A stretch of DNA of 64,000 bases from Candidatus Buchananbacteria bacterium CG10_big_fil_rev_8_21_14_0_10_33_19 (GTDB taxonomy: Bacteria > Patescibacteriota > Patescibacteriia > 2-01-FULL-39-33), in contig PEZY01000012.1 of assembly GCA_002773855.1 (NCBI GenBank), forward strand, positions 161,570 through 225,569, written 5' to 3'. Below the pieces are notes generated by a model that saw nothing but the letters and a program-made list of their open reading frames with translations, had not been told where the DNA came from and ran no database searches. Made by a program: the position numbers and the translations under genes. This document shows, piece by piece, positions 8,988-34,375 of the stretch. Within the stretch, counting starts at the first letter, position 1. Every line of letters begins with the position of its first letter.

Positions 8988-11300
8988 ATGAAAATTCTAA
9001 TTACTGGCTCTGGTGGAATGTTGGGGAGCTCGATGATTCCAGTCTTAAGAGAGGAGGGGTACGATGTTTATCCGACAGATAAAAATCCAGTTGAGGGGAT
9101 TGAACTATTAGATGTTCGAGAATACGATCAGGTTTTGGCTTGGGCCAGTAGATTACAACCAGATTTTATATTTCATTTGGCAGCTGAGACAGATTTAGAA
9201 ATTTGCGAAAACGATCCAGAGTATGCTTATAGTACCAACACCATTGGTACTCAAAATGTGGCTTTGATTTGTAAAAAGTTGGGTATTAAAATGGTTTATA
9301 TTTGTACGGCGGGAATTTTTGATGGTAAAAAAGAAAGTTTTTATAATGAATTTGATGAAGCAATTCCTTTGTCGATTTATGGCAAAACAAAATTAGAAGG
9401 TGAAAAAATTGTTAAAGAAATGTTGCATGAGTATTTTGTGTGTCGTCCTGGTTGGATGGTGGGTGGTGGAGCTAAAGACAAAAAATTTGTTGGTCAAATT
9501 ATCAAACAAATTAGAGACGGTGCCAAAGAGTTGCATGCGGTTGATGATAAATTTGGCACCTCCACCTATACCAAAGATTTTTGTAAAAATTTAGCAGCTC
9601 TAATTAAGACCGAGCACTATGGTTTGTATCATATGGTGTCTCGTGGTTCAGCTAGTCGATATGATGTGGCCAAAGAAATTGTGAAAATTTTAAATCGCCC
9701 AGATATTACTGTTCATAGTGTCCACTCTGATTATTTTGCTAAGCGTTATCCAGTGACTCGGCCACGTTCGGAAATGTTGGATAATTTAATGTTGGATTTA
9801 CGGGGTTTAAATTTAATGCGTAATTGGCGAGAAATATTGCCAGAATATATTAATGAACATTTTTCTGATGTTATTTTAAAAAACGATATTAATAATATGG
9901 ACAACAGTGAATCAAAAAATAAAAAAAAGTTTATTGTCATTGGTGCTGGCCTCGCCGGACTATCTACGGCTTATAAGTTATTACAGCAAGGGGCTGATGT
10001 GACTATTTTAGAAAAGGCCAAGGAAGTGGGCGGACTAGCTAGAACTATTAAGTATAAGGATTATTATTTTGATTTTTCAGCTCATCGCTTTTCGGCAAGT
10101 AAAAAAGATTTGATTGAGGAAATGAAACAAATAATGGAAGGTAATTTTACTGTTCGCTCAAAAAGATCTCGAATATTGATGTGGAACAAGTGGCTTAATT
10201 ATCCATTTGAATTATTAGATTTGATGTTGCACATGCCTAAGTTGTTGGCTATTAGAGCGGTCTTGGATTATATTTATACTTTAATTAAAGAGAAAATAAA
10301 ACCGACTAAAATTGTTTCTTTTAAGGATTGGTTTATCGCTAGCTTTGGTTATACTTTATATAAAACAAATTGCGAGCCTTATGCTACTAAGCATTGGCGC
10401 ATTGATCCCGGACAAATTTCGTCAGAGTGGGGTGAAGCTCGTTCACCAGCTAGTTTTAATTTAAAAACCATTATTGCGGATTTGATTACCAAGAAATATG
10501 CTAATGAGTTGGGTGCCGATAATCCTTATCCAGATGCGGATAGCTTCTATTATCCCAAGACTGGTGGCGTTGGCTCTATTGCCAATCGTTTTGCAGATGA
10601 AATTAGAAACATGGGCGGCAAAATTTACACTGAAGCAGAAATTACCAAAATTGATTTGTCTGGTGACAAAGCAGTAGTGGAATTTAATAAATATGGCAAC
10701 AGTCAAAAAATTGAAGCCGACAAAGTAGTGTCGACAATTTCAGTTTATATTTTATCAAATTTAGTTACTCCAGCTGTACCAGAAGAAGTCAAGGCTAGAT
10801 TGTCAAAGTTAACATACCTGAATACTATTTTTATAAATGTAATAATTAATCGTCCAAAAATTAGTGATGATTCTTGGTTATACTTTCCACAACCATCAGA
10901 AGAAATTATTTTTAATCGAGCAGTCGAATTTAAGAATTGGAGCGAAGATATGGCACCAAAAGACAAAACTAGCTTATGTTTGGATATATCTTGTACTAGT
11001 AGTGAGAAAATATGGACAGAGGATAATGATGCAGATTTAATTGCTAAAGCTAAAGAAGGACTAGTGAGGTCAAAAATTATTTCTAGTGTTGATGAGGTAG
11101 AAGAAACTTTTGTATTGAAAATTCCTTTCACTTATCCAGTTTATGATTTGGGTTATATTGATAATTTGAGACCAGTTGTAGAATCACTAGAGAAAAATGA
11201 TAAGTTAAAATTAGTGGGGCGTATTGGTAAGTTTAGTTATTCTAATATGGATGACGTTATAGCCGATGGTTTTGCTTTGGCTAATGATTTAATGAAATAA
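8988..11300 (+). CDS. Bifunctional fusion: N-terminal RmlD-like NAD(P)H sugar reductase (SDR) plus C-terminal FAD-dependent Glf/UDP-galactopyranose-mutase-like flavoprotein
   Basis: N-terminus MKILITGSGGMLGSS ... YGKTKLEGE (RmlD-like). After a Lys-rich linker (NSESKNKKK), KKFIVIGAGLAGLSTAYKLL ... EKAKEVGGLARTI ... FSAHRF resembles the Glf FAD-binding N-terminus. There is no internal stop or start. Confidence 0.65.
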   Translation: MKILITGSGGMLGSSMIPVLREEGYDVYPTDKNPVEGIELLDVREYDQVLAWASRLQPDFIFHLAAETDLEICENDPEYAYSTNTIGTQNVALICKKLGIKMVYICTAGIFDGKKESFYNEFDEAIPLSIYGKTKLEGEKIVKEMLHEYFVCRPGWMVGGGAKDKKFVGQIIKQIRDGAKELHAVDDKFGTSTYTKDFCKNLAALIKTEHYGLYHMVSRGSASRYDVAKEIVKILNRPDITVHSVHSDYFAKRYPVTRPRSEMLDNLMLDLRGLNLMRNWREILPEYINEHFSDVILKNDINNMDNSESKNKKKFIVIGAGLAGLSTAYKLLQQGADVTILEKAKEVGGLARTIKYKDYYFDFSAHRFSASKKDLIEEMKQIMEGNFTVRSKRSRILMWNKWLNYPFELLDLMLHMPKLLAIRAVLDYIYTLIKEKIKPTKIVSFKDWFIASFGYTLYKTNCEPYATKHWRIDPGQISSEWGEARSPASFNLKTIIADLITKKYANELGADNPYPDADSFYYPKTGGVGSIANRFADEIRNMGGKIYTEAEITKIDLSGDKAVVEFNKYGNSQKIEADKVVSTISVYILSNLVTPAVPEEVKARLSKLTYLNTIFINVIINRPKISDDSWLYFPQPSEEIIFNRAVEFKNWSEDMAPKDKTSLCLDISCTSSEKIWTEDNDADLIAKAKEGLVRSKIISSVDEVEETFVLKIPFTYPVYDLGYIDNLRPVVESLEKNDKLKLVGRIGKFSYSNMDDVIADGFALANDLMK

Positions 11301-11302
11301 AT

Positions 11303-14300
11303 ATGATTAAAGGTTTAGTCAAAAAACATAAAGTAATAATAATAATTTTTTTGTTGTCTTTGTTTTTGCGACTACTAACCTTTGGGCTTCTAATTGATAA
11401 TTATGGCACCGGTAGTTTTTATTTGGCCAATAATACTGAAGTTTTAGATGGTAATGATACTCAGCATTATGTGATTATTGCCAGTAATATTTCTGAACAC
11501 GGAGTGTATTCTAGATTCATAAATGAACCGTTTGAACCAGATAGTTTGCGTACACCACTTTTGCCATTGTATTTTTTGCCGTTTATTCATTTTTTAGGAT
11601 TTAGCAGTGTTTGGCTAGCAATGTTATTATTAGTAATTATTTTGTCGGCGATACCGGTAGAAGCTTATTATTTGGCAAAATTATTTTTAAGTAACAAGCT
11701 TAGCTTGGTGGCGGGATTATTAGTGGCTTTGCAGCCACTAATGATTTACTTCACTAGTATTACCGAGCCCGATATGCTGATGATTTTTTTGTTCTTGCTA
11801 GTGATTTATCATTTTTGTCTTTATTATATTAATAATACTTCTAAGAATTTATTGTTGTCAGCTCTGCTGTTAGGATTAATGACTTTGGCTAAGCCAGTTG
11901 GTATTTATATCGCGGTCATCTTGGTGATTTTTGTGGCTTTAAAAATTATAAAAAATAAAAAAGTTTTTCTAAATTTATTTTTATTTATTTTTATTTTTGG
12001 TTTGATTATATCGCCCTGGTTGTATAGAAATTATCAAGTTTTTGGCACAGTAGATATTAGTGCTATTAAATCGACCAATCTATATTTGTATTATACTGTT
12101 GGTTTTGAAAAAAATAATGAAGTCTTGCCAGTTGATTTAGGTGAAAGACAGCCAGTTAAAAATATTAAATATCAAAAGGAGTATGTTAGCTTGGCTGTAG
12201 ATAGAATTTTAAATCAGCCGATAGCTTATACCATGCATCATTTAATTGGTACTCTAAGATCGATGTTAGCCGGTGATTTGCAAGAAATTTATCACAAGGG
12301 TCATTCTAATATTTTGCCGTTTAGCTTAGATTTAGAGGGTCGAGTAAATATAACCGACAGCCTACAGTCTGGTAAATTGCTAGTGGTTATAAAATCAATT
12401 TTATTGAATTTTAATTTGTTACTTAGATATTTAATTTTAACCATTCTTTATATTCTGGTAGCTTTTGGCTGGTTGATGTCGTATAAGAGTAATAAAAAAA
12501 CTTTTGTTTTGTTTACCATGTTTGGTGTTTTAATTGCTTATTTCTTTTTGTCTTCTGGACCGTTTGTTTCGCCAAAATATCGTTTGCCAATTATGCCACT
12601 CTTGTTAATTATGTCTTTATATACTTTTTCTAATATGAAAAAAAATAAAATTAATGACAAAAAAATAGTTATTGCATCGGGCACTTATTTACCAGAAATT
12701 TCTGGTCAGTCTACCTTTGTCGATAACTTCAAAAAAAATTTACCAGCTGATTATGAATTAGTAATTGTGGCCTATGGTAATAAAACCGAAGTGGTAAATA
12801 ATAATATTTATTATATTAAACGAAATATATTTAGACATCTTAATTATTATTTAACTATTAGAAATCAGGCCAAGGACGCAGTGATTATTTATGCTCAAGA
12901 TTTGGTGTCATCAGGCTTACCAGCAGCCTTGGCCAAAAGATCAAGTAATTATTTAGTTGTTCGTATTGGTGGTGATTTCTTGTGGGAGAAGATGGTAAAT
13001 ACTGGTAAGACCGAAGTGCCAATTAGTCAGTATTACCAGCAGCCAAAAAGTTTGTTAGAAAAACTTTATTTAAAATTATATCACTATGTTATAAATAAAA
13101 GTGATAAATTAATTTTTAATACACCCTGGCCACAGAAGTGGTATGCTGATTATTTTAATATTAGTATTAATAAAATTAGTGTGATTCAAAATCCGTTTAC
13201 TATTAATAATAAAATTGATGTAAATGATTCAGTAATTGGCGATGAAATTATTTATGCTGGTCGTTTTATACCGCTTAAAAATTTAGAAAGATTGATCGAA
13301 GCTTTTAAAAAAATAAAAACTGATAAAAAATTAGTAATTATTGGTGCTGGTCCACAATATAATGATTTACAAAAATTAGCCGCTAGCGATCAGCGAATTG
13401 CTATTGTTGATAAAATGAATCAGGCACAGTTATGGCAGAGAATTGCCAAATCTTATTTGTTTATTTTGCCAAGTATTTCTGAATTCAATCCTAACGTAGC
13501 TATTGAAGCTCTGAGTTTGCACAAACCAGTTATTTTAACTAAAGAGGTTGGCTTGTCTGATGATTTAAAAAGTAAGTTTGTTTTAGCTGATCCATTAAGT
13601 GTTGATAGTATTGAAAAACAAATTGAATATTTATTGAATGGTGAAAATTATAAAAACTTTTTAGATAATTTGTCTATCGGCGATTTGTCTTATGATTGGT
13701 CAAAGGTGATGAGTGAGCATATTGAGGTGTTTAACTCTATTATTAATCAAATAAATGTATTAAATATTGGCACTGACAGAGGTTTAGCTGGCGGTAAAAA
13801 ATTAGGAGATGCTATAGCTAGACATCGAGCTTATGGCGAACACGTAGATAACTTAGATATCATCACTTATTCTAGTAGTAGAGATAATTTACTTGGCCTT
13901 AAAATATCGGATAATGTTACAGGCTATGCTACTAATTCGCTATTTAAAATATTTTTTGTATTTGATGTTATTAAAATATTTAGAAAAATAAATAAGCAAC
14001 ATAAAATTAATATCGTTGTTTGTCAGGATCCTTTTGTACCAGCTTTGGCCGGATTATTTTTAAAAATATTTTATCATGTTAAATTACAAATTAATTTTCA
14101 TGGTGATTTTTGGCAGAACAAAAATTGGCTTAAGGAAAATCCAATTAATTTTATATTTTTGTTAATATCAAAATTTACTGTTCCCTTTGCTGATGCTATT
14201 AGAGTGATGAGTGATGGTCAAAAATTAAAGTTAGGTTCTTATGCTAAAAAAGCTAGGGTGATATCAACACCAGTAGATATTAAAAAAATTTTAGATTCTA

Positions 14301-14884
14301 GTCAGACAGTGAGTTCAGAAGGGGCCTTGATGGTTTTGCATGTTGGTCGAGATGATAAAGTTAAGGATTATGATACTTTACTAAAAAGCTGGAATATAAT
14401 AAATACTGATTTAAATACTGATAAGAAAAAAAGAGTGATGTTTTATCAGTCTGGGGCTGATCAAGAATTAGATAAGGCTAAAGCCGCTTTAGGTCAAGCT
14501 GGTTTGGATATCAATATTATTAAGTTGGGGCGCAAGGATCATGATTCATTAATTAAATATTATAATCAGGCTAATGTAGTCATGTTGTCTTCCACTTCTG
14601 AAAGTTTTGGTAAAGTGTTAATAGAGGCTAGTGCCGCTGGTAAGCCGGTGGTATCAACCTCTACCACTGGCGCTAAAGAGATTATAGTTGATCAAAAAAA
14701 TGGTTATCTGGTGCCAATTGGTGACGCCAATGGTTTGGCCGAGAAAATTATTTATTTATTAGAAAATAGTGATAAGGCTAAGGCTATGGGCGAGACTGGT
14801 AGGGAAATGGTTGTAAAAAAATATGGTCATAACACTGAAAAAATTATTAAACTTTGGCAAGATATTATAAAAAATAATATATGA
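11303..14884 (+). CDS. Tri-domain protein: N-terminal polytopic GT-C-like membrane domain (~440 aa) plus two tandem GT4 domains
   Basis: About 12 TM segments at the N-terminus. The middle domain begins MKKNKINDKKIVIASGTYLPEISGQ, which is GT4 N-terminus-like. The C-terminal domain ESFGKVLIEASAAGKPVVSTSTTGAKEIIVDQKNGYLV is a GT4 motif. Confidence 0.65.
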   Translation: MIKGLVKKHKVIIIIFLLSLFLRLLTFGLLIDNYGTGSFYLANNTEVLDGNDTQHYVIIASNISEHGVYSRFINEPFEPDSLRTPLLPLYFLPFIHFLGFSSVWLAMLLLVIILSAIPVEAYYLAKLFLSNKLSLVAGLLVALQPLMIYFTSITEPDMLMIFLFLLVIYHFCLYYINNTSKNLLLSALLLGLMTLAKPVGIYIAVILVIFVALKIIKNKKVFLNLFLFIFIFGLIISPWLYRNYQVFGTVDISAIKSTNLYLYYTVGFEKNNEVLPVDLGERQPVKNIKYQKEYVSLAVDRILNQPIAYTMHHLIGTLRSMLAGDLQEIYHKGHSNILPFSLDLEGRVNITDSLQSGKLLVVIKSILLNFNLLLRYLILTILYILVAFGWLMSYKSNKKTFVLFTMFGVLIAYFFLSSGPFVSPKYRLPIMPLLLIMSLYTFSNMKKNKINDKKIVIASGTYLPEISGQSTFVDNFKKNLPADYELVIVAYGNKTEVVNNNIYYIKRNIFRHLNYYLTIRNQAKDAVIIYAQDLVSSGLPAALAKRSSNYLVVRIGGDFLWEKMVNTGKTEVPISQYYQQPKSLLEKLYLKLYHYVINKSDKLIFNTPWPQKWYADYFNISINKISVIQNPFTINNKIDVNDSVIGDEIIYAGRFIPLKNLERLIEAFKKIKTDKKLVIIGAGPQYNDLQKLAASDQRIAIVDKMNQAQLWQRIAKSYLFILPSISEFNPNVAIEALSLHKPVILTKEVGLSDDLKSKFVLADPLSVDSIEKQIEYLLNGENYKNFLDNLSIGDLSYDWSKVMSEHIEVFNSIINQINVLNIGTDRGLAGGKKLGDAIARHRAYGEHVDNLDIITYSSSRDNLLGLKISDNVTGYATNSLFKIFFVFDVIKIFRKINKQHKINIVVCQDPFVPALAGLFLKIFYHVKLQINFHGDFWQNKNWLKENPINFIFLLISKFTVPFADAIRVMSDGQKLKLGSYAKKARVISTPVDIKKILDSSQTVSSEGALMVLHVGRDDKVKDYDTLLKSWNIINTDLNTDKKKRVMFYQSGADQELDKAKAALGQAGLDINIIKLGRKDHDSLIKYYNQANVVMLSSTSESFGKVLIEASAAGKPVVSTSTTGAKEIIVDQKNGYLVPIGDANGLAEKIIYLLENSDKAKAMGETGREMVVKKYGHNTEKIIKLWQDIIKNNI

Positions 14885-18677: not shown

Positions 18678-19829
18678 ATGAAATTGCTCTACATTGCTAA
18701 TATTAGAATACCCACCGAAAAAGCTCATGGTCACCAAATAATGACTATGGGTGAAGCTTTTAGTCTGCAAGGAGTGGATACTATTTTGGTGGTGCCGAGC
18801 AGAAAGAATAATGATTTTAAAAATGTTAATCCGTTTGATTTTTATGAAATCAAGAAAAATTTTAAACTTAAAAAAATATTAACTATTGATCCGGTATTAT
18901 TATTAAAATTTCCAGCTGGTATATATATTAAGGTTCAGTCTATAATATTTATGTTTTTTTTGAGTTGGTATTTTCTGTTTATAAATAGAGGAGACTATAC
19001 TGTTTATACTCGAGATGAGTATTTATTACCATTTTTACAAATATTTTTTAAGCGAGTAGTCTGGGAAGCTCATGCCTTGCCTAATAATTTAAACAAGTAC
19101 AGAAAATATTTGAATCGCTGTTACAAGGTTATAGTTTTAACTTCTGAGATTAAAAAACAATTGACTAAATTAGGCATAAATGGTAATAAGGTTCTAGTGT
19201 CTCCGGATGCAGTAGACTTGTCTATATTTGATATTGATATAGATAAACAAGAGGCTCGTCAGTCTTTAAAGTTACCTGCTAATAAAATTTTACTAGGCTA
19301 TACTGGCAGTTTTAAAACCAAGGACATGGATAAGGGGATTAGCGACATATTAAAAGCCTTAAAAAAATTACCAGACAATATTCTATTAGTGGCTATAGGT
19401 GGTAGTGATATTGATATCGAATTTTATAAAAACATAGCCAAGAGTTTGAACATAGAAAATAGAGTGATCTGGGTTAAAAAAGTTGATCAAAAAACATTGG
19501 CAGTGTATCAAAAATCTTTTGATGTATTGTTGATGCCTTTTCCATACACTAAGCACTATGCTTATTATATGTCACCACTTAAAATGTTTGAATACATGGC
19601 ATCGAAAAGGCCAATTGTGGCCTCTAATTTGCCGACTATTAAAGAAGTTCTAAATGAGAATAATTGTATTTTTTGTCGACCAGATGATAACGCTGATTTA
19701 GCTAATAAGATAAATATATTAATAAGTAATAGTGATTTAGCTGCCAAACTTTCTAACCAGGCTTATTTGGATGTTAAAAATTATACTTGGAATAATCGAG
19801 CAAAATTAATAATTGATTTTATAAGTTAA
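18678..19829 (+). CDS. Glycosyltransferase family 4
   Basis: GT-B C-terminal motif SPLKMFEYMASKRPIVASNLPTIKEV. Confidence 0.7.
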   Translation: MKLLYIANIRIPTEKAHGHQIMTMGEAFSLQGVDTILVVPSRKNNDFKNVNPFDFYEIKKNFKLKKILTIDPVLLLKFPAGIYIKVQSIIFMFFLSWYFLFINRGDYTVYTRDEYLLPFLQIFFKRVVWEAHALPNNLNKYRKYLNRCYKVIVLTSEIKKQLTKLGINGNKVLVSPDAVDLSIFDIDIDKQEARQSLKLPANKILLGYTGSFKTKDMDKGISDILKALKKLPDNILLVAIGGSDIDIEFYKNIAKSLNIENRVIWVKKVDQKTLAVYQKSFDVLLMPFPYTKHYAYYMSPLKMFEYMASKRPIVASNLPTIKEVLNENNCIFCRPDDNADLANKINILISNSDLAAKLSNQAYLDVKNYTWNNRAKLIIDFIS

Positions 19830-22681
19830 TGGACACTAGTAAATTGATCAGAAAAATAAAAAGATTTATAAAAATAAGGCGAACAATATTATTGTACAGC
19901 ACAATAATATTATTTTTGTTATTTTTATTCTTGGCAGTTTATGTGGGAAAAGTATATCTAACAGATGGTAAAACAGGTTTAATTAGAACGCCAATTGGCA
20001 GAGCTATATTGGCACCGTATAGATCAATGCGAAAAATGTCAGATATTATGTATCTTGGCTATGCTTTTAAAAAGAATAACTTACCAAAATATAGATTAGA
20101 AATTAATCCCAATGATTTTAAGTTTTTAAACGATAATTTGCCAGAGCCATATCAAGATGATAGACAAAGCCGTTTAACCGATGAATATCGCAAGCCGGTA
20201 CCAGCGAAATTTTATTTTGATGGTCGTGAGTATAAAGTAAAAGTTAACTATCGTGGCTATGTTGGTAATCATTGGTCTAATGCTAAAAAATCATGGGACA
20301 TAAAATTTGATGATGAAAATTTATTTAATGGTTTAACTAGTATTAAATTAATTATTCCAGAGGACAGGGGAATTGTGGCTGAATATATGAATCAATATCG
20401 AGCCAATAAACTGGGGTTGTATCCACTGTTTAGTTCTTACACTACTTTAGTAGTTAATGGTAGAAACAATGGGGTTTATTTTCAGGTTGAGCCTTGGGAT
20501 GAAAGTTATTTGGCCAAGCATGAATTAATAGACCAAACAGATATGTTCGCTTTTTATGAAGATTGGAATAGAAGTGATCGTTATAGTGATTCATTCGAAA
20601 TGTTATCTTATTATGACAAGAAAGCTGATAATCCATTTTATAATTATAAAAATTATGCACCATTAAATTATGTTTTTGATTTGATAAATGATTACTCTAC
20701 CGATTTTGAGGAAAAAATTTCTAATGTTGTTGATATGAATCAGTTTTTAAATTGGCAGGCCGTACATATGTTAATGTCTAGTCCTCATAATCTTTATAGA
20801 AATATTAGATTATTTACTGATAGAGAGACAGGGAAATTGGTTTTTGTGCCGTGGGATGTTGGCTTTACTGAGCCTAGTACTAGCTTAGAAATAAATAGCT
20901 CTAGTTTGTATAATCGTATTTTTATGTCTGACAAATTTTCTTATCAAAGAAACAAAATTCTTTGGAATTACGTTGGTAATGAGGATAATTTAAAAGATGA
21001 TTTAAAATACTATGATGATTCATTTAATAATATTAAAGTAGCTTTGGCTCAAGATCATTTGAAAGTTTATAGTACTAAGTGGTTTTTTAATGAAAATAAA
21101 AAAATCAGACAAGACATTGAAGATAATTTTTATAAAGTTAGAAATATTTTAAAAAATACTAGAGCCTCTATTAGTGTTTATATGTCTGATGATAATCCAA
21201 CTTATTTTGATGTGACAGCTGATATGCTACCAGAGATTGTTTTGGATAAAGTGAGGATCTATTCACCAGAGAACGTTGCTTATAAAATATATTTTGATTC
21301 CAATCATAATAATGAATTTGATATCACGGATGTACTAGCAGGAACTTCCAGTTATGATCTTAATAAAAAATATCACTTAATATTATCTGATAGAAATATT
21401 ATTCTGTCAGCGGCCAAAAAATTAGCTAATGATAATATTAGTTTTGAATATTTTCCAAAAACTTACAGATTTTTTATTCAGTCTAGCGGTTCAGGTAAAG
21501 TAGAAAAAATTAAAATTCAAGTAGATAATGCCATCACTGATAAAAAGGTTGATGATAGAATTCAGTACATTAGTTTAGATGCCTATAAATATTTATCACA
21601 AAAGAATATTTCTATTGATGAGTTTGTAGCAAAATTTCCCATCTTTAGAAAAATAGATAACAACACCGTTGAACTTTATAGAGGTAGTTATAATTTGAAT
21701 ACCGACGTTATCATTCCAGTTGGTAAAAAATTAATTATTAATCCAGGGGTGACGATTAATTTATCTAAAGGAGTATCATTAATAACCTATGGTCCAATTT
21801 TAGCTTCTGGTACGGTTGATAGTCCTATAGTTTTTTCTGGTTATGATGCTTGGGGGTCTGTAGGTATATCTGAGGCCCAGGAAAAAAGTGTTTTTGATCA
21901 TGTTAAATTTAGCAATGGTCAGGATGCTTTAGTTAATGGTGTTTATTATAGCGGTATGTTATCGGTTTATAGGTCTGATGTGGAAATTAATAATTCAGAA
22001 TTTTCTAAGGCACAAGCTGATGATGCAATAAATGTTAAACATGCTAAAGTTTTAATTCATAATTCTGTTTTCTATAATAATTCAGCTGATTCAATTGATC
22101 TTGATTTTATTTCTGATGGCCAGATTAAGAATAATGTATTTTTGAATACTGGTAATGATTCTATGGATTTGAGTGGCTCATCGGTTTTAATAGAGGGTAA
22201 TAAAATTAAAAATTCTGGTGATAAGGGAATTAGTATTGGTGAAAAATCAAATAATGTAATTATTTATAATAATGAAATAATTGCTAATAATATTGGTATC
22301 GAGTCTAAAGATTTATCGCAGGTCTGGACTATTAATAATGTGCTTATTAATAATGGCACCGCTGTTAATGCTTACCAGAAAAAGGGAATATTCGGCGGCG
22401 GTATGCTAGTTGTTTATAATTCTATATTTTATAAAAATGATTTAAATATTAATTTTGATGAATTATCGAAAATAGAAGTATTTAATAGTAATATCGCTGA
22501 TTATTCTGTTGAAAATGGTAATTTTATCGGTGATCCGGAGTTTATTAATGAAAGAGAGGAAAACTTTACAAATAACCCTAAAAATGTTAATATTTCCTTT
22601 ATTAATAGTGGTAATACGGATATTTTAAGTGATAAATTGAATATCAATGTTGAACAGGTGCCTGTTGGTCTAAATAAGTAA
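19829..22681 (+). CDS. Large membrane-anchored CotH-like kinase family protein with C-terminal right-handed beta-helix (pectate-lyase-like) repeat domain
   Basis: N-terminal TM anchor. The central region VVNGRNNGVYFQVEPWDESYLAKHEL ... FAFYEDWN is CotH-like. The C-terminal ~300 aa hold repeated N-x-V/I-x-x-N-S-x-D motifs (NNSADSIDLD, NTGNDSMDLSG, NSGDKGISIG). Confidence 0.5.
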   Translation: MDTSKLIRKIKRFIKIRRTILLYSTIILFLLFLFLAVYVGKVYLTDGKTGLIRTPIGRAILAPYRSMRKMSDIMYLGYAFKKNNLPKYRLEINPNDFKFLNDNLPEPYQDDRQSRLTDEYRKPVPAKFYFDGREYKVKVNYRGYVGNHWSNAKKSWDIKFDDENLFNGLTSIKLIIPEDRGIVAEYMNQYRANKLGLYPLFSSYTTLVVNGRNNGVYFQVEPWDESYLAKHELIDQTDMFAFYEDWNRSDRYSDSFEMLSYYDKKADNPFYNYKNYAPLNYVFDLINDYSTDFEEKISNVVDMNQFLNWQAVHMLMSSPHNLYRNIRLFTDRETGKLVFVPWDVGFTEPSTSLEINSSSLYNRIFMSDKFSYQRNKILWNYVGNEDNLKDDLKYYDDSFNNIKVALAQDHLKVYSTKWFFNENKKIRQDIEDNFYKVRNILKNTRASISVYMSDDNPTYFDVTADMLPEIVLDKVRIYSPENVAYKIYFDSNHNNEFDITDVLAGTSSYDLNKKYHLILSDRNIILSAAKKLANDNISFEYFPKTYRFFIQSSGSGKVEKIKIQVDNAITDKKVDDRIQYISLDAYKYLSQKNISIDEFVAKFPIFRKIDNNTVELYRGSYNLNTDVIIPVGKKLIINPGVTINLSKGVSLITYGPILASGTVDSPIVFSGYDAWGSVGISEAQEKSVFDHVKFSNGQDALVNGVYYSGMLSVYRSDVEINNSEFSKAQADDAINVKHAKVLIHNSVFYNNSADSIDLDFISDGQIKNNVFLNTGNDSMDLSGSSVLIEGNKIKNSGDKGISIGEKSNNVIIYNNEIIANNIGIESKDLSQVWTINNVLINNGTAVNAYQKKGIFGGGMLVVYNSIFYKNDLNINFDELSKIEVFNSNIADYSVENGNFIGDPEFINEREENFTNNPKNVNISFINSGNTDILSDKLNINVEQVPVGLNK

Positions 22682-22682
22682 T

Positions 22683-23432
22683 ATGGTTAAACCAAAACTA
22701 CATTTTCAAAGGTTTGAATTTAAATATTATCTACCTAAGAATACGGCAGATAAGTTAATTCCAACACTTTTGAATTACATGAACTGGGATAGCTATATCC
22801 AAAATACTGGCAGGGATTATTACGAGGTTAATAGTTTGTACTTTGATACTTATAATTTTGATTGTTTTTGGGATAAGGAAGCTGGGGTGTCCAATAGAAA
22901 AAAACTTAGGTTTAGATTTTATGGCCATGACTTATTACCAGAGACGCCAGTTTTTTTGGAGATAAAACAAAAGAATAATGTTTTAGTAACCAAAGATCGA
23001 GTTAAGTTGAAAATGTCAGATTGTGTAAATGAAAATTTGGATTCAGCTTTAATGTCTAATTACGGCAATAATAATGATAAATTTTTAGATAGTTTATTTT
23101 TATTTAAAAATACTAATTTCCTAAAACCCAAACTTTATATCTCCTATAAACGTAAAGCATTGGTTGGCAAGCACGATGATCGTTTTAGAGTGACCTTTGA
23201 TTATGATATTAAAACTAAGTTATCAAGTGATATTAAAGATGGCACCTCTAGTTTAAAGGATGTTTACTTTGATGGCGTTGTTTTAGAGTTAAAATATAAT
23301 AATATTTTACCATCATGGTTTCACGGGATTATTCAATCATATCAACTTGATCGCATAGCTTATTCTAAATATTGTAATTCCTTAAGAATGTGTTTACCAA
23401 ACTTAGACGATAATAATTATTCATTAAGATAA
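22683..23432 (+). CDS. VTC-domain (polyphosphate-polymerase-like/CYTH-like) protein
   Basis: N-terminal FQRFEFKYYLP and internal NSLYFDT motifs typical of bacterial VTC-domain proteins. Confidence 0.6.
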   Translation: MVKPKLHFQRFEFKYYLPKNTADKLIPTLLNYMNWDSYIQNTGRDYYEVNSLYFDTYNFDCFWDKEAGVSNRKKLRFRFYGHDLLPETPVFLEIKQKNNVLVTKDRVKLKMSDCVNENLDSALMSNYGNNNDKFLDSLFLFKNTNFLKPKLYISYKRKALVGKHDDRFRVTFDYDIKTKLSSDIKDGTSSLKDVYFDGVVLELKYNNILPSWFHGIIQSYQLDRIAYSKYCNSLRMCLPNLDDNNYSLR

Positions 23433-23436
23433 AAAA

Positions 23437-24123
23437 ATGTTAGAAAATTTAATAGAACTGCCAAAAATAGTGACCACACTTACTGTATCAACAATTGTAT
23501 TTAATATTGTCTTGGCCTTTGTTCTGTCTTTGATTATAGCTATAGTATATAGAAACACTCACAAAGGCTTGTCGTATTCACAATCATTCACTTTTACCTT
23601 GGTTTTAATTGGTATGTTAATTGCGGTTATTATGATGGTTATTGGCAATAGTTTGGCTATTGCTTTCGGCGCTTTCGGCGCTTTTTCTTTGATTAGATTT
23701 AGAACTGCAATTAAGGATACTAAGGATTTATCATTTATATTACTAGTAGTTTCAATTGGTTTAGCTGTTGGTACTAATAATTATTTAATTGCTATAATTG
23801 TTGCTTTGTTGTCTAGTATCTTTATTTATTTAATGTCTAAATTTAATTTCGGTTCAATTAGAAAATATGACTACTTGCTTAACTTCTCTGCTAATCATGA
23901 AGAATTTTCTAATAACAGGATGAGAGAGATATTTGATGATTTTTTGAAATACGATAATCTATTAAATGTAGTCTCTCATGATAATGGTAGATTATTAGAT
24001 TATAGTTTTAATATTAAATTTATTAAAGAAGACAGTGTTAGTATTTTTGTGGAACGCTTAAGTAAAATGAATGGTGTAAAAAGTGTTAATATTGTAGCTG
24101 CTAAAAATGATATTGAGTATTAG
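23437..24123 (+). CDS. DUF4956-like membrane protein (conserved partner of CotH/VTC)
   Basis: N-terminal ~140 aa with 4 TM segments plus soluble C-terminal domain. The position downstream of the VTC gene matches the known CotH-VTC-DUF4956 neighbourhood. Confidence 0.45.
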   Translation: MLENLIELPKIVTTLTVSTIVFNIVLAFVLSLIIAIVYRNTHKGLSYSQSFTFTLVLIGMLIAVIMMVIGNSLAIAFGAFGAFSLIRFRTAIKDTKDLSFILLVVSIGLAVGTNNYLIAIIVALLSSIFIYLMSKFNFGSIRKYDYLLNFSANHEEFSNNRMREIFDDFLKYDNLLNVVSHDNGRLLDYSFNIKFIKEDSVSIFVERLSKMNGVKSVNIVAAKNDIEY

Positions 24124-24178: not shown

Positions 24179-26110
24179 GTGGCTAATCATATAAAAAAAA
24201 TATATTTTCGTTTTCTGTTTTGGTTAGATGGAATATTGCCTAAACACAATATTCCAGTTTTGTTATATCACTCAATAAGTGATGATAATAGTAAAATGTC
24301 TGTCAGTCCAGAAAAATTTGAGCAGCAATTAATACAATTAAAAAAAGCAGGTTATAAATCAATTAGTCTGGCTGAGTTGAAGAGTTGTTTTGATAAAAAT
24401 ATATTTCCTACTAAAAGAGTAATGATTACTTTTGATGACGGCTTTTTGGATAATTATGAAATCGCTCGACCGTTATTAAAACAATATGGTTTTGGAGCGG
24501 TTTTTTTTATCGCTGGAAAATATATTGATTCTACCGCTGATTTTTGTACTAATGATATAGATAGGGTTAAAAAAATGATGTCCGAAGATCAGTTAGGAGA
24601 CTTATCTGGTAATAACTTGGAGGTGGCTAATCATTTCTTTTCTCATAAGATTTTATCTGATATGGATAGTGATGAAATTAAAAATGAGTATTACACTAAC
24701 CGAGATAAATTATTAAAAATAGTGGGTGATATTGAAACTTTGAAGTATGTAGCCTATCCCAAAAATAAAAAAAATAATGTAGCTAGTTTATTAGAAAAAT
24801 GTGGTGTACTTTTAGCATTTGGTGGTCGACCTGGAGTGGTGAAGCAAAATAGTTTGCGTTATGACTTGCCAAGAATTCAAGTTTATAATAACGATTCAAT
24901 TAATAAATTTTTAGCCAAGCTATCACCATATTATTATTTTTTGCCATGGATTGCATTTGTTATTAAACAGGCCATAAGATCACCTTGGTTTTATTTGCTT
25001 TTAGTTCTAGCATTGTCTAGGTTTGCTTTTTTCTGGCTTGGGTTGTTTGGCTTCCCAGCTAATGCATCTTTGGTTGGTGATTGGTGGACACTTTATGGCG
25101 GTGATGAAATAAATTATTTTAAATCAGCTAAAGAAATTATTGATGGAGATGTTATCTCTCGGGCTAGGCCTATCGGATTTCCTTTATTTTTAATTCCGTT
25201 TATTTGGTTTAGTTATTCGGTTAATTTTATTGACGCTTTCCCATTGGTATCTTTTGTTAATGGCGTTGTTCTTTACTCAGTTGCTTTGGTATTAATTTAT
25301 TTTTTAGCTAAAGAGATTCTTGGTTCAAAATTAAAGGCGTATATAGTGGCAGTGATTTTTAATATTTATCCTTATTTATTTTATTTTTTATTTAAAATAT
25401 TTGTTAGAGGTAATAATATTATTAGTCCTTTTGTAGAAAGTCGTTTTAGACAGTTAATGTTTTGGCATTTTGGATCCGATCCTTTGTCTATAGTTTTGAT
25501 ATTGGCTTCTTTATTGTGCTTTATTTTGATAATTAGGAATAAGGTGAACTCTATTTTTATAGCTTCAATAGTTGGCTTAATGTCTTCTTGGTCGGTTATA
25601 GCGAGATTACAAAATTTAATAATTTTACCGATATTTTTCTTGGCCTTTTTATTGTTTAGGAAAATAAAGTTATTAAAATATTTTTTTATCTTTAGTCTAT
25701 TGCCTCTTTTTTTACAATTATATTTTAATTTTATAAGTCAAGATTCAATTTTTTCTACTTCCTATAAATTAAATGGTGGTTCTGGATCGGATATTCCAAT
25801 TTTTAGTTTTTCTTATATTTTTAGAATAGTCACTTATCCTTTGGATTATGGAGCCATTTTGTTAGCGCCAATTATAATTATTTTAGTATTGGCAGTTGTT
25901 GGGTTTTATTATCTAATTAAATTAAATAAAAAAGTTGGATTATTTTTATTTGGTTATGTGATTTTAAATTTACTTTTTATTTTATTTTTGGAACCAACAT
26001 TTAGAAATCCTAGATATTTTTTACCGGTTATTCCTATTTTGATAATAGTTTTATATTTACCAATGGATCAGTTAATAAACAAAATAATTTTATATGTTAA
26101 ATCAAAATGA
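24179..26110 (+). CDS. Fusion: N-terminal polysaccharide deacetylase (NodB/CE4 homology) plus C-terminal polytopic membrane domain (~390 aa)
   Basis: PVLLYHSISDD ... MITFDDGFLDNYEIARPLLKQYGFGAVFF is the CE4 motif set. The C-terminal half has 10 or more TM segments. Confidence 0.65.
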   Translation: MANHIKKIYFRFLFWLDGILPKHNIPVLLYHSISDDNSKMSVSPEKFEQQLIQLKKAGYKSISLAELKSCFDKNIFPTKRVMITFDDGFLDNYEIARPLLKQYGFGAVFFIAGKYIDSTADFCTNDIDRVKKMMSEDQLGDLSGNNLEVANHFFSHKILSDMDSDEIKNEYYTNRDKLLKIVGDIETLKYVAYPKNKKNNVASLLEKCGVLLAFGGRPGVVKQNSLRYDLPRIQVYNNDSINKFLAKLSPYYYFLPWIAFVIKQAIRSPWFYLLLVLALSRFAFFWLGLFGFPANASLVGDWWTLYGGDEINYFKSAKEIIDGDVISRARPIGFPLFLIPFIWFSYSVNFIDAFPLVSFVNGVVLYSVALVLIYFLAKEILGSKLKAYIVAVIFNIYPYLFYFLFKIFVRGNNIISPFVESRFRQLMFWHFGSDPLSIVLILASLLCFILIIRNKVNSIFIASIVGLMSSWSVIARLQNLIILPIFFLAFLLFRKIKLLKYFFIFSLLPLFLQLYFNFISQDSIFSTSYKLNGGSGSDIPIFSFSYIFRIVTYPLDYGAILLAPIIIILVLAVVGFYYLIKLNKKVGLFLFGYVILNLLFILFLEPTFRNPRYFLPVIPILIIVLYLPMDQLINKIILYVKSK

Positions 26111-26954
26111 TAAATTAAGTTTTCTAATTCCAGTTCATAATGAAGATAAGGTGATTTCTAAAACTCTGCGTGAGTGTTATGAAAAATTAAAGTCTTTGAA
26201 TATTAATTTCGAAATAATTGTCATTAACGACGGTTCTACAGATACCACTAAAGAAATATTATCCCAAGTGGATTACGTTAAAGTTTTAAATAACCCGTAT
26301 AATATTGGCTACGGTGCTTCATTAAAACGAGGTATCGCTAGTAGTAGTGGTAATTGGATTATGATTATTGACGCCGATGGAACTTATCCCATTTCTGATA
26401 TTGATAAAATTATAAAGCCAGCCGGTGATTATGATATGGTGGTAGGTAATCGTCAACATGATAAGGATCATTTTGGTCGTAAGCCAGCCAAGTGGTTTTT
26501 GAAAAAGCTGGCTAGTTTTTTGGCTGGTAAAAAAATTCCAGATTTAAATTCCGGCATGAGAATATTTAAGAAAAGTGTTGCTTTAGAATTTTGGCATTTG
26601 TATCCGTCGAGATTTTCTTTTACTAGCACTATTACTTTGGCTTGCTTTGCTAACGATTATTTTGTGAAGTATGTAGATATCCCGTATTATTCTAGAGTCG
26701 GAAGATCAGGTATAAAGCCTCGTAATTTTTTTGACTTCATAGCTTTGATTCTTAAATTGGTTGTTTACTTTAAGCCACTTAAGATGCTTAGTCCTTTGGC
26801 ATTGTTGTTTTTGCTAGCAGGTCTGGCAAAACTAGTCAAAGATTTTGTGGTTAATGGTTATATAGGTACGTTGGCTTTGTTATTAATCTTATTTGCAGTA
26901 CAGATATTTATTATGGCTATTATATCTGAAGTAATAATCAAGAGACAAAAATAA
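26094..26954 (+). CDS. GT2 polyprenol-phosphate glycosyltransferase (DPM1-like) with C-terminal TM helices
   Basis: FLIPVHNE ... IVINDGSTDTT ... IIDADGTYP. Confidence 0.7.
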   Translation: MLNQNDKLSFLIPVHNEDKVISKTLRECYEKLKSLNINFEIIVINDGSTDTTKEILSQVDYVKVLNNPYNIGYGASLKRGIASSSGNWIMIIDADGTYPISDIDKIIKPAGDYDMVVGNRQHDKDHFGRKPAKWFLKKLASFLAGKKIPDLNSGMRIFKKSVALEFWHLYPSRFSFTSTITLACFANDYFVKYVDIPYYSRVGRSGIKPRNFFDFIALILKLVVYFKPLKMLSPLALLFLLAGLAKLVKDFVVNGYIGTLALLLILFAVQIFIMAIISEVIIKRQK

Positions 26955-28046
26955 ATGAATAATACATTTGCAAAATATATTATTGGTGGATTCATTAGCT
27001 ACGGAATAAAAATTATTTTAACTTATACAGTGATTAATTTTTTTGACCTTTGGTATTTTTATGCTTATCTATTTTCTTTGGGAGTGGTTATTTTTATAAA
27101 TTTTGTTATTAATTCATTTTTTATTTTTAAGGTTAGTGATTTTAACGTTATTAGGATTATAAAATATGTAGTATCAATTTTTATATTTAATTCTTTGGAT
27201 GCTGGATTGGTAGTTATTTTAACTGATAAGTTTTTCTTATATTATTTACTATCAATTACTATATCTACTATTGTTATTTTTTTGGTAAAATTTATTATTT
27301 ATAAATATTTTATTTTTAATACTAATTCTAATTATAATTCTAATGTAAATACCGATAACAAAAATATTTTTTCGTCAAAGGCTTATCTAAAAGAACATGA
27401 CAAGCCTTATCTTAAGGGTTATGAAAAAGTAGTAATTGAAAAATATTTTACTTCAAATATGAAGATTTTAGATTTGGGTTGTGGTGCTGGCAGAACTAGT
27501 AAGATTTTAAGTGATATGGGTTGTAGGGTTATTGGTGTGGATATTTCTGACAATCTAATTGATCTAGCCAAACAAAAATATCCCAATCTAGATTTTAGAA
27601 TTGGCGATGCTACTAGTTTAGATTTTGAAGACAATTATTTTGATGCTGTGTTATTTTCTTTTAATGGTATTGACTATGTTCATCCTAGAAAACTTCGCTT
27701 GCAAGTTTTAGAAGAGATTAATAGGGTGTTAAAAAATGGCGGGTTATTTGTTTATTCATCTCATAATGCTTTAAATATTCCTAGAACTAAGATATCGATA
27801 TTAACATTTTTAAATAGTCTATTAACTTTAAGAATTTTTAGTTATTATAGAAATGAAAAACATGATTTAGGAGATATTGTTACTTATTATGGTAATATTT
27901 GGTCTGAGGAAAAAGATTTAAATAAGCATGGTCTAGTTTTAATTGATTGCGTAGGCGTTGGATCTGTATCTAGTATTAAAAATAAATTATTACTTAGTTT
28001 ATTATCTAAGCATATAATGTATGTGGCAAAGTCTAATAATCAATAA
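26955..28046 (+). CDS. Fusion: N-terminal GtrA-like 4-TM domain plus C-terminal class I SAM-dependent methyltransferase
   Basis: GtrA-like KYIIGGFISYGIKIIL ... INFVINSFFIFK. MTase motif I ILDLGCGAGRTSKIL ... VIGVDIS. Confidence 0.65.
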   Translation: MNNTFAKYIIGGFISYGIKIILTYTVINFFDLWYFYAYLFSLGVVIFINFVINSFFIFKVSDFNVIRIIKYVVSIFIFNSLDAGLVVILTDKFFLYYLLSITISTIVIFLVKFIIYKYFIFNTNSNYNSNVNTDNKNIFSSKAYLKEHDKPYLKGYEKVVIEKYFTSNMKILDLGCGAGRTSKILSDMGCRVIGVDISDNLIDLAKQKYPNLDFRIGDATSLDFEDNYFDAVLFSFNGIDYVHPRKLRLQVLEEINRVLKNGGLFVYSSHNALNIPRTKISILTFLNSLLTLRIFSYYRNEKHDLGDIVTYYGNIWSEEKDLNKHGLVLIDCVGVGSVSSIKNKLLLSLLSKHIMYVAKSNNQ

Positions 28047-31390: not shown

Positions 31391-31930
31391 ATGAGTGATG
31401 ATATTATAATTAAAAAAATTCCTAAAAACTTAATTTTGGATGTGGATGGAGTTTTGACTGATGGCACTTACCACTATACTATTGATGGCAAGGTGGCTAA
31501 GATTTTTGGACCCGATGATAATGATGCTCTGTGTTTATTGAAAAAATATTTAACCATTCATATGGTTAGTGGTGATAAAAGAGGTTTTGATATTACCAAA
31601 AAAAGGATTGATGACATGAAATTTCCTATTGATTTGGTAAGTACTTTTGATAGACTAAAATGGATAACTGATCGATTTAATCCAGAAGAAACAATTTATA
31701 TGGGTGATGGAATTTTTGATGCATCTATTTTTAATGGCGTGATGTATGGTATTGCCCCAGCAAATGCTTTTATCACAACCAAACAACATGCCAATTACGT
31801 AACACCATCCAGAGGAGCTGATAGTGCGGTAGCTGAAGCTTGCTTGCATATACTAGAGAAATTTTTTGAACCATTTGACCCACTTAATTTAAATGTGGAT
31901 AGTGTTGGCGTCTGGCAGAATAAAAAATAA
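31391..31930 (+). CDS. HAD-superfamily phosphatase, KdsC (YrbI)-like sugar-phosphate phosphatase
   Basis: LILDVDGVLTDG motif I. 179-aa size and GDGIFDASIF motif IV-like as in KdsC. Confidence 0.7.
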   Translation: MSDDIIIKKIPKNLILDVDGVLTDGTYHYTIDGKVAKIFGPDDNDALCLLKKYLTIHMVSGDKRGFDITKKRIDDMKFPIDLVSTFDRLKWITDRFNPEETIYMGDGIFDASIFNGVMYGIAPANAFITTKQHANYVTPSRGADSAVAEACLHILEKFFEPFDPLNLNVDSVGVWQNKK

Positions 31931-31944
31931 ATAATTATATTTCT

Positions 31945-32769
31945 ATGAAAATTGATAAAGATACAATTGCCTGTATTTCTATGGCATCTCGACCTGGTGA
32001 TTTGGGCGCCACTATTTTTAATGCTAGTTTTGACCACCTATCTTTGAATTATATTTATAAGCCATTTGGGGTGACCTTGAAAAATTTAGATAAGGGCGTT
32101 AATGGTATTAGGGCTTTTGGCATTAGAGGCTGTGGTGTATCTATGCCACATAAAGTGGAAGTGATGAAATATTTAGATGAGATTGATGACGTTGCTAAAA
32201 AAATTGGTGCTATCAATACTATTGTTAATAATGATGGAAAGTTAACTGGCTATAATACTGATTTTTTTGGTGCTAAAAAAATTATATCTGAAACTTATAA
32301 TTTATCCGGTAAAAAAGTTTTAATAATTGGAGCCGGAGGTGTATCTCGAGCGATTATTATGGCCTTAAAAGAAAATGGGGCTGGTGAAATTTTTATTGCC
32401 AATAGAAATGAATCTAAGGCAGAAACTTTGGCTACAGAATTTGAATTGACTACATTGCCTTATGATAAGATTAATGATTTTTCTGCTGACTTGCTAGTAA
32501 ATGCCACTGCAGTTGGCATGTCTCCAGATGTTGATGAGATGATTATTTTAGAAAGTGCTATTGATAATTTTGAGGCTGTTATGGATGTTGTAATATACCC
32601 CAGTGTTACTAAATTAATGGCCTTAGCCCAGAATAAGGGCAAGGTGGTCATTGCTGGTTTTAATATGGCCCTATATCAGGCGGCTGAGCAGTTTAAGATG
32701 TACACTGGAGTTGAAGCTCCACTAGGAGTGATGAAAGAAAATATGATAAATTTATTTAGTCAAAAGTAA
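31945..32769 (+). CDS. Shikimate/quinate dehydrogenase (AroE) family NAD(P) oxidoreductase
   Basis: S-M-P-H-K substrate motif, YNTDFFG (NTD motif), and IGAGGVSRAI Rossmann motif. Confidence 0.7.
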   Translation: MKIDKDTIACISMASRPGDLGATIFNASFDHLSLNYIYKPFGVTLKNLDKGVNGIRAFGIRGCGVSMPHKVEVMKYLDEIDDVAKKIGAINTIVNNDGKLTGYNTDFFGAKKIISETYNLSGKKVLIIGAGGVSRAIIMALKENGAGEIFIANRNESKAETLATEFELTTLPYDKINDFSADLLVNATAVGMSPDVDEMIILESAIDNFEAVMDVVIYPSVTKLMALAQNKGKVVIAGFNMALYQAAEQFKMYTGVEAPLGVMKENMINLFSQK

Positions 32770-32781
32770 GTTAATAAAATT

Positions 32782-34362: not shown

Positions 34363-34375
34363 ATTATTAAATATC

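Follow-up and report, generated by a model that had tools for sequence, protein, structure and literature searches.

Polyphosphate polymerases of the VTC type are treated as eukaryotic enzymes, and the yeast VTC complex couples polyphosphate (polyP) synthesis to membrane translocation. Secreted kinase-fold proteins are common in bacteria, though ATP is absent beyond the membrane. For streptococci, clostridia and bifidobacteria, Whitfield et al. (2020, PMC7112168) list four accessory genes that directly adjoin pelDEADAFG: cotH, a 'poly-phosphate polymerase' gene, DUF4956 and DUF4832. In Streptococcus intermedius the triad is SIR_1594-SIR_1592, encoding a CotH-FN3 protein, the VTC protein SIR_1593 and a DUF4956 protein; Pel-dependent aggregation in artificial sputum medium fell by more than 50%, and Pel levels changed, when SIR_1592 (DUF4956) or SIR_1594 (CotH-FN3) was deleted, and the adjoining SIR_1591 is an active glycoside hydrolase (PMC12345266). 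NELoc-2 of Clostridium perfringens carries VTC and CotH genes together with membrane genes of 222-226 aa annotated as 'tubulin/FtsZ, GTPase' (PMC2879425), and these membrane genes may be DUF4956. The attachment of the triad to exopolysaccharide loci is already published, without a mechanism (PMC7112168, PMC12345266). Here we describe a CotH-VTC-DUF4956 triad of Candidatus Buchananbacteria bacterium CG10_big_fil_rev_8_21_14_0_10_33_19, a member of the candidate phyla radiation (CPR), within a window of 64,000 nucleotides (contig PEZY01000012.1, positions 161,570 to 225,569; all coordinates below are those of the window). The window triad is a CPR, non-Pel, beta-helix-bearing and His-substituted form of the published module. 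New here are the invariant His of the CPR-type CotH protein, the non-Pel cluster and a natural fusion of a GT2 synthase with VTC; also among the most useful new observations are an intact Vtc4-type active site across phyla, a predicted inside/membrane/outside topology and a conserved beta-helix groove. Tentatively, we read the triad as one membrane-spanning accessory module of a surface-glycan cluster, which would carry phosphate chemistry out of the cytoplasm and onto the cell surface.

The three genes are tightly packed (Table 1). The stop codon of the upstream GT4 glycosyltransferase gene and the start codon of the CotH gene overlap as TAATG, and gaps of 1 nt and 4 nt separate CotH from VTC and VTC from DUF4956. 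Pfam matches of the triad proteins all exceed their gathering cut-offs: CotH (PF08757) matches residues 146-440 of the first protein (E=3.3e-19, 70 bits against a cut-off of 23.8) and Beta_helix (PF13229) its residues 715-851 (E=2.9e-12), VTC (PF09359) covers residues 10-235 of the second (model positions 2-232 of 235, E=3.2e-46, 158 bits against 23), and DUF4956 (PF16316) matches the third (E=5.9e-11, 42.8 bits against 30.6). A scan of the three proteins against NCBIfam matched no family. An earlier reading of this DNA, made from the letters and their translated open reading frames (the sequence-only reading), had called three consecutive, nearly overlapping genes for a membrane-anchored CotH-like protein with a beta-helix tail, a VTC-domain protein and a DUF4956-like protein, embedded in a glycan cluster and forming a conserved neighbourhood of uncharacterised function. 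The open reading frames are exactly where it had put them; a CotH fold and a VTC fold are both present, as is the DUF4956 domain; transmembrane (TM) prediction, AlphaFold2 (AF2) structure prediction and Pfam bear out the anchor and the tail; the setting is indeed a glycan cluster of about 33 kb; and the description of the neighbourhood is fair, judging from the 80-locus survey presented below and from the papers searched, none of which gives a biochemical function.

The window triad resembles the Gram-positive Pel accessory set in that the three families are contiguous and co-oriented in an exopolysaccharide cluster with a CE4 deacetylase and GT4 enzymes, the CotH protein is secreted or surface-located, and DUF4956 combines an MgtC-like TM region with an ACT domain. 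It differs from that set in that the cluster has a MOP-type flippase and many GT4/GT2 genes and lacks pelD, pelE, pelF and pelG, the CotH tail is a beta-helix instead of FN3, a DUF4832 hydrolase is missing (no match in the scanned neighbours of the triad), the CotH protein has His for the catalytic Asp, and the host is a CPR bacterium. Identity as a Pel locus was rejected: none of the 32 window proteins scanned matched PelD, PelE or PelG, the best PelF score among them was 62.8 against a cut-off of 100 with the upstream GT4 protein likewise below it, and the exporter is a MOP/Wzx-type flippase. The authors of the S. intermedius study found no triad outside Pel loci (PMC12345266), whereas in our survey of 80 loci the triad is common outside them.

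The VTC protein (isoelectric point, pI, of 9.1) is predicted to be cytoplasmic, since no TM helix was found. The motifs R-x-E-x-KYY and YFDT, to which the sequence-only reading had drawn attention, are present as R10-F-E12-F-K14-Y-Y (RFEFKYY) and Y53-F-D-T. A profile search with 16 homologues matches yeast Vtc4 (3g3q, E=4.1e-12) and pairs K14 with K200, R76/R78 with R264/R266, E93/K95 with E279/K281, K104/R106 with K294/R296, Y155/R157 with Y359/R361, and R169 with R373. Residues K200, R264, R266, K281, Y359 and R361 of Vtc4 bind triphosphate and are needed for polyP synthesis (bioRxiv 10.1101/2023.01.27.525886). Each of the six tunnel residues of the VTC protein is the same in 86 of 86 homologues from several phyla; for the whole set that also includes E202, K204, S228 and K229, the count is 85-86 of 86. 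In Vtc4, E426 is a Mn ligand, and K458 of the S457-K458 pair separates active Vtc4 from inactive Vtc2/3. It is plausible that E202 corresponds to E426 and S228-K229 to S457-K458, as they lie in the last strands, where these residues would be expected; PDB searches with the single sequence and with a profile gave no alignment of the C-terminal third to E426, S457 or K458. These observations suggest that the VTC protein is a Vtc4-type triphosphate-tunnel enzyme and a putative polyP polymerase. Like the yeast VTC complex (Vtc4/Vtc3/Vtc1), it would bring a tunnel domain with triphosphate-binding residues, a cytoplasmic catalytic domain and association with a membrane protein. Unlike Vtc4, it has neither an SPX domain nor a DUF202-type TM domain on the same chain, and it keeps Glu12 of the R-x-E-x-K motif, where Vtc4 has Thr. 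The family is large: 12,483 cluster representatives match at E<=1e-3, and 6,200 still do at E<=1e-10. In contrast to eukaryotic Vtc4, the best 150 representatives listed are mostly short (about 250 aa) and stand alone. As a side observation, residues 207-235 in the C-terminal helix region (NILPSWF...YSKYCNSLR) repeatedly gave a weak match to the SAM domain of SARM1 (best E=0.0054, with the profile), which is probably due to chance.

In the DUF4956 protein, five TM helices precede the C-terminal ACT-like domain; the conserved loops and the ACT domain are predicted to face the cytoplasm, and one such loop carries two invariant Arg residues, R87 and R89. Its match to MgtC stays below the cut-off (17.4 against 31.4 bits). 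The membrane partner in the window also sets the triad apart from the yeast complex: it is MgtC-like, unrelated to the yeast protein, and combines five TM helices with an ACT domain.

The CotH-fold protein is predicted to lie largely outside the membrane: it has one TM helix with a net charge of +7 on the N-side and +2 on the C-side, which predicts an N-in/C-out orientation with the remainder of the chain outside, and a hydrophobic N-terminus is common to all of its CPR homologues. The AF2 model (predicted local distance difference test score, pLDDT, of 81.9) has four parts, namely a long helical stalk, a kinase-like domain from about residue 86, a beta-sandwich and a right-handed beta-helix. 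The atypical protein-kinase-like fold of CotH is present, and phmmer matches the protein to Bacillus CotH (PDB 5jd9) with E=5.7e-9. Bacillus CotH is a Ser/Thr protein kinase, and the D228Q mutant of B. subtilis CotH is inactive (PMC7821199; the catalytic residues are taken from this source, and their numbering was deduced via the 5jd9 alignment). The equivalent of D228, which is D224 in B. cereus, is His320 in the window protein (nt 20786-20788), as phmmer, our own profile hidden Markov model (HMM) and hhalign agree, while N325, the Asn of the catalytic loop, and D343, the metal-binding Asp (nt 20855-20857, in a PWD motif; B. subtilis D251), are kept.

How common this substitution is came from a census of non-identical aligned CotH domains found beside VTC genes. 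His occupies the position in 56 sequences (H-type: CPR, planctomycete-type and a few unclassified sequences from metagenome-assembled genomes, MAGs), Asp in 10 (D-type: Bacillales, Chloroflexi, Fibrobacteres, one spirochaete, Glycomyces and the B. cereus reference), and a handful have another residue. D343 is kept in 54 of the 56 H-type sequences and N325 in 53; a second clade-specific His, H148, accompanies H320, and the motifs RG...KKS and NG.Y are strongly conserved. Since the His is invariant rather than decayed, and H-type and D-type proteins occupy the same genomic slot beside VTC, H320 would seem to be a working residue rather than a dead site, and could act as a general base or phospho-acceptor. 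The 'kinase' label given by the sequence-only reading is weakened by the His at the D228 position. A location outside the cytoplasm, as predicted, speaks against ATP being the phosphoryl donor of the CotH domain. Bacillus CotH (PDB 5jd9/5jda) acts in the mother-cell cytoplasm, whereas the window protein, which departs from it in H148 as well as in His320, is predicted to be membrane-anchored and extracytoplasmic, and is about 590 residues longer, with the beta-sandwich and the beta-helix added.

The beta-sandwich has no Pfam match. One of its loops, D-x-N-x-N-x-x-x-D, is conserved in the alignment of CPR homologues. In the window protein the motif reads YFDSNHNNEFDITD (21290-21340, residues ~490-505; type D-x-N-x-N/D-x-x-x-D) and resembles a dockerin/EF-hand Ca-binding loop. 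The tail that follows has both a pectate-lyase-like fold and the Pfam Beta_helix repeat. Across 52 distinct sequences from several phyla, six successive rungs bear a near-invariant ladder made up of nine Asp, a single Glu and five Lys: D731, D732, N735 and K737; D754, D757 and D759; D777 and D780; D798, K799, S802, G804 and E805; K827 and D828; K851 and K852. Its conservation across phyla with differing glycan clusters suggests that the groove serves catalysis or metal binding and that its ligand is a shared one, not a strain-specific glycan. The beta-helix thus looks catalytic or metal-binding, not like a glycan-specific binding module; the sequence-only reading had called it carbohydrate-binding (polysaccharide-binding/lyase-like). 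The fold is shared with pectate-lyase-fold enzymes (PL9 Pel9A, the C5-epimerase AlgG, PL6 lyases and phage depolymerases), with no family-specific catalytic motif assigned. The beta-helix is restricted to H-type CotH proteins (39 of 56, against none of the 10 D-type sequences).

To place the triad in a wider context, a VTC profile was scanned against one genome per GTDB species, which gave 80 loci, and neighbours were counted with HMMs iterated on these loci. The loci are mostly from Patescibacteria, with others from Chloroflexi, Planctomycetes, Spirochaetia, Fibrobacteres, Bacillales, Actinomycetota and two MAGs labelled archaea; all close homologues of the triad proteins come from Patescibacteria/CPR. 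In 72 of the 80 loci DUF4956 lies directly downstream of VTC, and in 77 it is no more than 10 kb away. A CotH gene adjoins the pair in 47 (41 upstream, 6 downstream) and is found within 10 kb in 62. This synteny is far beyond chance. VTC and DUF4956 form the core of the module, which CotH often, though not always, accompanies as a third member. A fusion of VTC with DUF4956 was seen neither among the 80 loci nor among the best 150 VTC representatives listed. The CotH partners carry extracellular modules in every lineage (a beta-helix, Big_2, fn3 or LTD/CHB_HEX, or a signal peptide); those outside the CPR have Big_2, fn3/CBM-like modules, or LTD-ILEI-CHB_HEX with a signal peptide. The beta-helix is found on the CotH gene in 41 of the 80 loci and is the commonest CotH architecture beside VTC, so that the fusion, from which the sequence-only reading had argued, is neither special to the window nor unusual. 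A CE4 deacetylase as a universal fourth member was likewise rejected (13 of 80 loci). Glycosyltransferases within 10 kb are mostly absent from the non-CPR loci, as judged by CPR-derived HMMs of weak sensitivity. In the closest relatives the whole block GT4–CotH–VTC–DUF4956–CE4–GT2 is kept, and the GT4-CotH junction is as in the window in L001, L002 and L004.

Two further features of these loci may be recorded here. Many CPR loci have a second, shorter CotH paralogue (~520-600 aa, H-type, no beta-helix) in tandem with the long one (L004, at 13031-14608, L005, L008, L017, L045, L050, L051, L055 and L057). Nine loci (L006, L009, L012, L018, L019, L023, L025, L033 and L036) come from records titled 'uncultured Gammaproteobacteria bacterium', and are 40-62% identical to the window triad; their gene content is CPR-like and these titles look like mislabelling.

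A direct connection between VTC and polysaccharide synthesis came from a protein of 718 aa (P0359), in which a processive GT2 synthase (the QxxRW motif as QRHRW, with TM helices) is fused to a C-terminal VTC domain. It is encoded on two independent metagenome contigs of 55% G+C (L086, 3251-5407, and L087, 607-2763), where a DUF2334 deacetylase-like gene is followed by P0359 and then by DUF4956 and an LTD-ILEI-CHB_HEX-CotH protein. The fusion physically ties VTC to a polysaccharide-exporting membrane enzyme.

How the three proteins could work together is suggested by their anatomy, with a putative polymerase in the cytoplasm, its partner in the membrane and an enzyme outside, in analogy with the yeast VTC complex. 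We suggest that the soluble VTC protein, to judge from its intact active site, could use ATP to build polyP on the cytoplasmic side of the membrane. The DUF4956 protein could dock it via the cytoplasmic ACT-like domain and the invariant Arg-rich loops, and as an oligomer it could pass the polyP chain or phosphoryl units across the membrane; this step is proposed from the obligate adjacency of the two genes, the topology and the yeast analogy. At the surface, where ATP is absent, the CotH-fold ectoenzyme would use exported polyP as substrate or phosphoryl donor and would (poly)phosphorylate a surface glycan or a surface protein, with its beta-helix holding or processing the polymer. The sequence-only reading had arrived at a kinase/polyP module acting at the surface; such a module fits the predicted topology (CotH outside, VTC inside, DUF4956 in the membrane), and we keep it in the conditional. 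The phenotypes of the DUF4956 and CotH deletions in S. intermedius, the GT2-VTC fusion, the synteny, the topology, the fold and family assignments, the extracellular modules of the CotH partners and the VTC active site are all consistent with a relay of this kind. Members of the Fam20 clan (the xylose kinase Fam20B, POMK) have a kinase fold and act on glycans outside the cytosol, and so are a precedent for a CotH-like domain that phosphorylates sugar and not protein. They use ATP imported into the lumen of the Golgi or endoplasmic reticulum, and there is no such pool outside the bacterial membrane. A relationship between CotH and Fam20C has been stated (PMC7821199). In its most specific form the proposal is somewhat unlikely: the triad would be a bacterial counterpart of the eukaryotic VTC machine, in which a Vtc4-like polymerase and an unrelated MgtC-like partner export polyP as donor or substrate for the His-swapped surface CotH of the CPR/planctomycete clade, which would have acquired a conserved beta-helix that binds metal or phosphate.

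Several points weigh against the relay. We know of no kinase-fold enzyme that uses polyP as donor, and a literature search found no biochemistry for any bacterial VTC, DUF4956 protein or secreted CotH. The replacement of the catalytic Asp by His in the H-type clade may have changed or abolished CotH activity. With its pI of 4.7, the beta-helix is acidic and would therefore bind polyP only via metal ions. The model of the DUF4956 protein is a monomer of moderate confidence (pLDDT 70.7), and MgtC-type proteins are known as regulators (PMC12345266), not as channels. Deletion of SIR_1593 (VTC) had no reported effect (PMC12345266), which argues against a strict dependence of CotH on VTC. Finally, among the 59 loci with at least 3 kb on both flanks, 10 (Oceanobacillus, Planococcus and others) have VTC-DUF4956 without CotH within 10 kb, so the pair can work alone.

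The last of these points would be readily explained if the operon combined two separate functions, which we consider unlikely without dismissing it. VTC-DUF4956 would then serve intracellular polyP, phosphate or Mg2+ homeostasis without export, and the CotH/beta-helix protein would be a surface glycan-processing enzyme or adhesin, with an active lyase/epimerase-like helix on a CotH pseudokinase scaffold. The loss of the catalytic Asp at H320, the regulatory role of MgtC relatives (PMC12345266) and the active glycoside hydrolase SIR_1591 beside the Firmicutes triad all agree with such a division. However, it is hard to explain without a functional link why CotH should be adjacent or nearby as often as counted above, in many phyla and with varied accessory domains. 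Furthermore, the strong conservation of N325, D343, RG...KKS and NG.Y and the invariance of H320 (56 of 56) are the opposite of dead-site decay, and D-type CotH proteins with an intact Asp stand in the same slot beside VTC in other phyla.

The GT2-VTC fusion, followed as it is by DUF4956 and CotH genes, raises another possibility, that VTC acts on the glycan pathway itself. Tethered or regulated by DUF4956, it would work in the cytoplasm and (poly)phosphorylate the growing polysaccharide, or the lipid that carries it, on entry into the export machinery, and CotH and its beta-helix would later recognise, trim or extend the phosphorylated polymer outside. The triad is contiguous with synthase-dependent Pel loci (PMC7112168), and in the window and its relatives it is embedded in, and translationally coupled to, glycosyltransferase genes. 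We nevertheless regard this as quite unlikely, as the tunnel residues match Vtc4 at every alignable position and a bulky glycan acceptor would not be an obvious fit for the tunnel. In Vtc4 these residues enclose triphosphate and the growing polyP chain. That non-CPR loci often have no glycosyltransferase within 10 kb also speaks against it, a weak point given that the glycosyltransferase models are CPR-derived. Least probable, and indeed improbable, is that CotH is a protein kinase regulating polysaccharide synthesis through biosynthetic or surface proteins, with VTC and DUF4956 acting indirectly via phosphate metabolism: Bacillus CotH is a Ser/Thr protein kinase (PMC7821199), the idea was proposed for streptococcal Pel loci (PMC7112168) and Pel levels shift in the CotH and DUF4956 deletion mutants. 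But topology prediction places the catalytic domain outside the membrane, and secretion or extracellular domains mark its homologues as well, so that it would be away from cytoplasmic glycosyltransferases and ATP; the catalytic Asp is replaced in the H-type clade, and the near-obligate pairing with VTC/DUF4956 would be left unexplained.

Table 1. Coordinates of the triad, its domains and its flanking genes in the window
Feature	Position	Strand	Details
GT4 glycosyltransferase gene	18678..19829	+	Pfam Glycos_transf_1, E=6e-20; conserved upstream neighbour of the CotH gene
CotH-fold protein gene	19829..22681	+	950 aa; membrane-anchored (predicted); C-terminal beta-helix
Single N-terminal TM anchor (CotH protein)	19886..19942	+	Residues 20-38; hydropathy peak 2.65
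Kinase-like domain (CotH protein)	20084..21163	+	Residues 86-445
All-beta sandwich linker domain (CotH protein)	21164..21574	+	Residues 446-582; AF2 secondary structure
Right-handed parallel beta-helix (CotH protein)	21647..22573	+	Residues 607-915
VTC-domain protein gene	22683..23432	+	249 aa; putative polyphosphate polymerase; predicted cytoplasmic
DUF4956 membrane protein gene	23437..24123	+	228 aa
Five TM helices (DUF4956 protein)	23485..23841	+	Residues 17-135
C-terminal ACT-like domain (DUF4956 protein)	23869..24102	+	Residues 145-222
CE4 polysaccharide deacetylase fused to a multi-TM domain	24179..26110	+	Pfam Polysacc_deac_1, E=2.7e-17; TM scan

The window has about 30% G+C, and almost all of its genes are on one strand. 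The cluster around the triad contains many GT4/GT2 enzymes, epimerases, a UDP-sugar dehydrogenase and the MOP-type flippase. Scans of the window for tRNA genes and Rfam families gave no matches. Between 15000 and 30500, promoter-like and terminator-like signals are at the shuffle background (116 against 99±11, and 6 against 5.2), and no internal transcription units are indicated. On the 3' side of the triad, at 24179-28046, a CE4 domain fused to a domain of ~10-13 TM helices without a Pfam match is followed by a GT2 enzyme of the polyprenyl-phosphate-sugar-synthase type (AglJ/ArnC/PgfS-like) and by a fusion of GtrA-TM with an S-adenosylmethionine (SAM) methyltransferase; these genes look like an extracytoplasmic glycan-decoration module in the style of Gtr, Arn or CsbB-GtcA-YfhO. 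A CE4-multi-TM gene is also found 3' of the triad in L001, L002/L003 and L007, with shorter CE4 genes in L004, L009 and L015, and is possibly part of the same surface-decoration block as the triad.

Other genes of the window have features of their own. A fusion protein of 1193 aa (11303-14884) joins a PMT_2 (GT-C) membrane domain to two GT4 modules; it is kept in L001 and split in L002. In another fusion, of 770 aa (8988-11300) and conserved in L001, a flavin amine-oxidase-like domain is joined to an RmlD-like reductase, an unusual combination for an enzyme that tailors sugar nucleotides. The four genes at 31391-35386 encode a HAD phosphatase, a shikimate-dehydrogenase-like protein, a nucleotidyltransferase of 526 aa and a class-II aldolase-like protein, and resemble a pathway for a nucleotide-activated sugar or polyol that feeds the glycan. 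At 2091-4274, a protein of 727 aa has a lipase/LCAT-like alpha/beta-hydrolase domain and a weak match to a 'putative adhesive domain'; it could be a lipase or adhesin that an episymbiont secretes.

The relay proposed here offers a testable hypothesis on the phosphoryl donor of secreted kinase-fold proteins and on the role of bacterial VTC proteins. The relay would also account for the biofilm phenotypes of the streptococcal Pel accessory genes. In its most specific form, if true, it would be the first polyphosphate-driven extracytoplasmic (poly)phosphorylation system, one that decorates surface polysaccharides, notably de-N-acetylated cationic ones. Even if polyP export should prove wrong, the His-for-Asp swap and the GT2-synthase–VTC fusion stand as entry points for biochemistry. 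As for the CPR bacteria themselves, their surface glycans probably mediate attachment to host cells, and the triad is one of the few conserved candidate systems for modifying the surface in these organisms.

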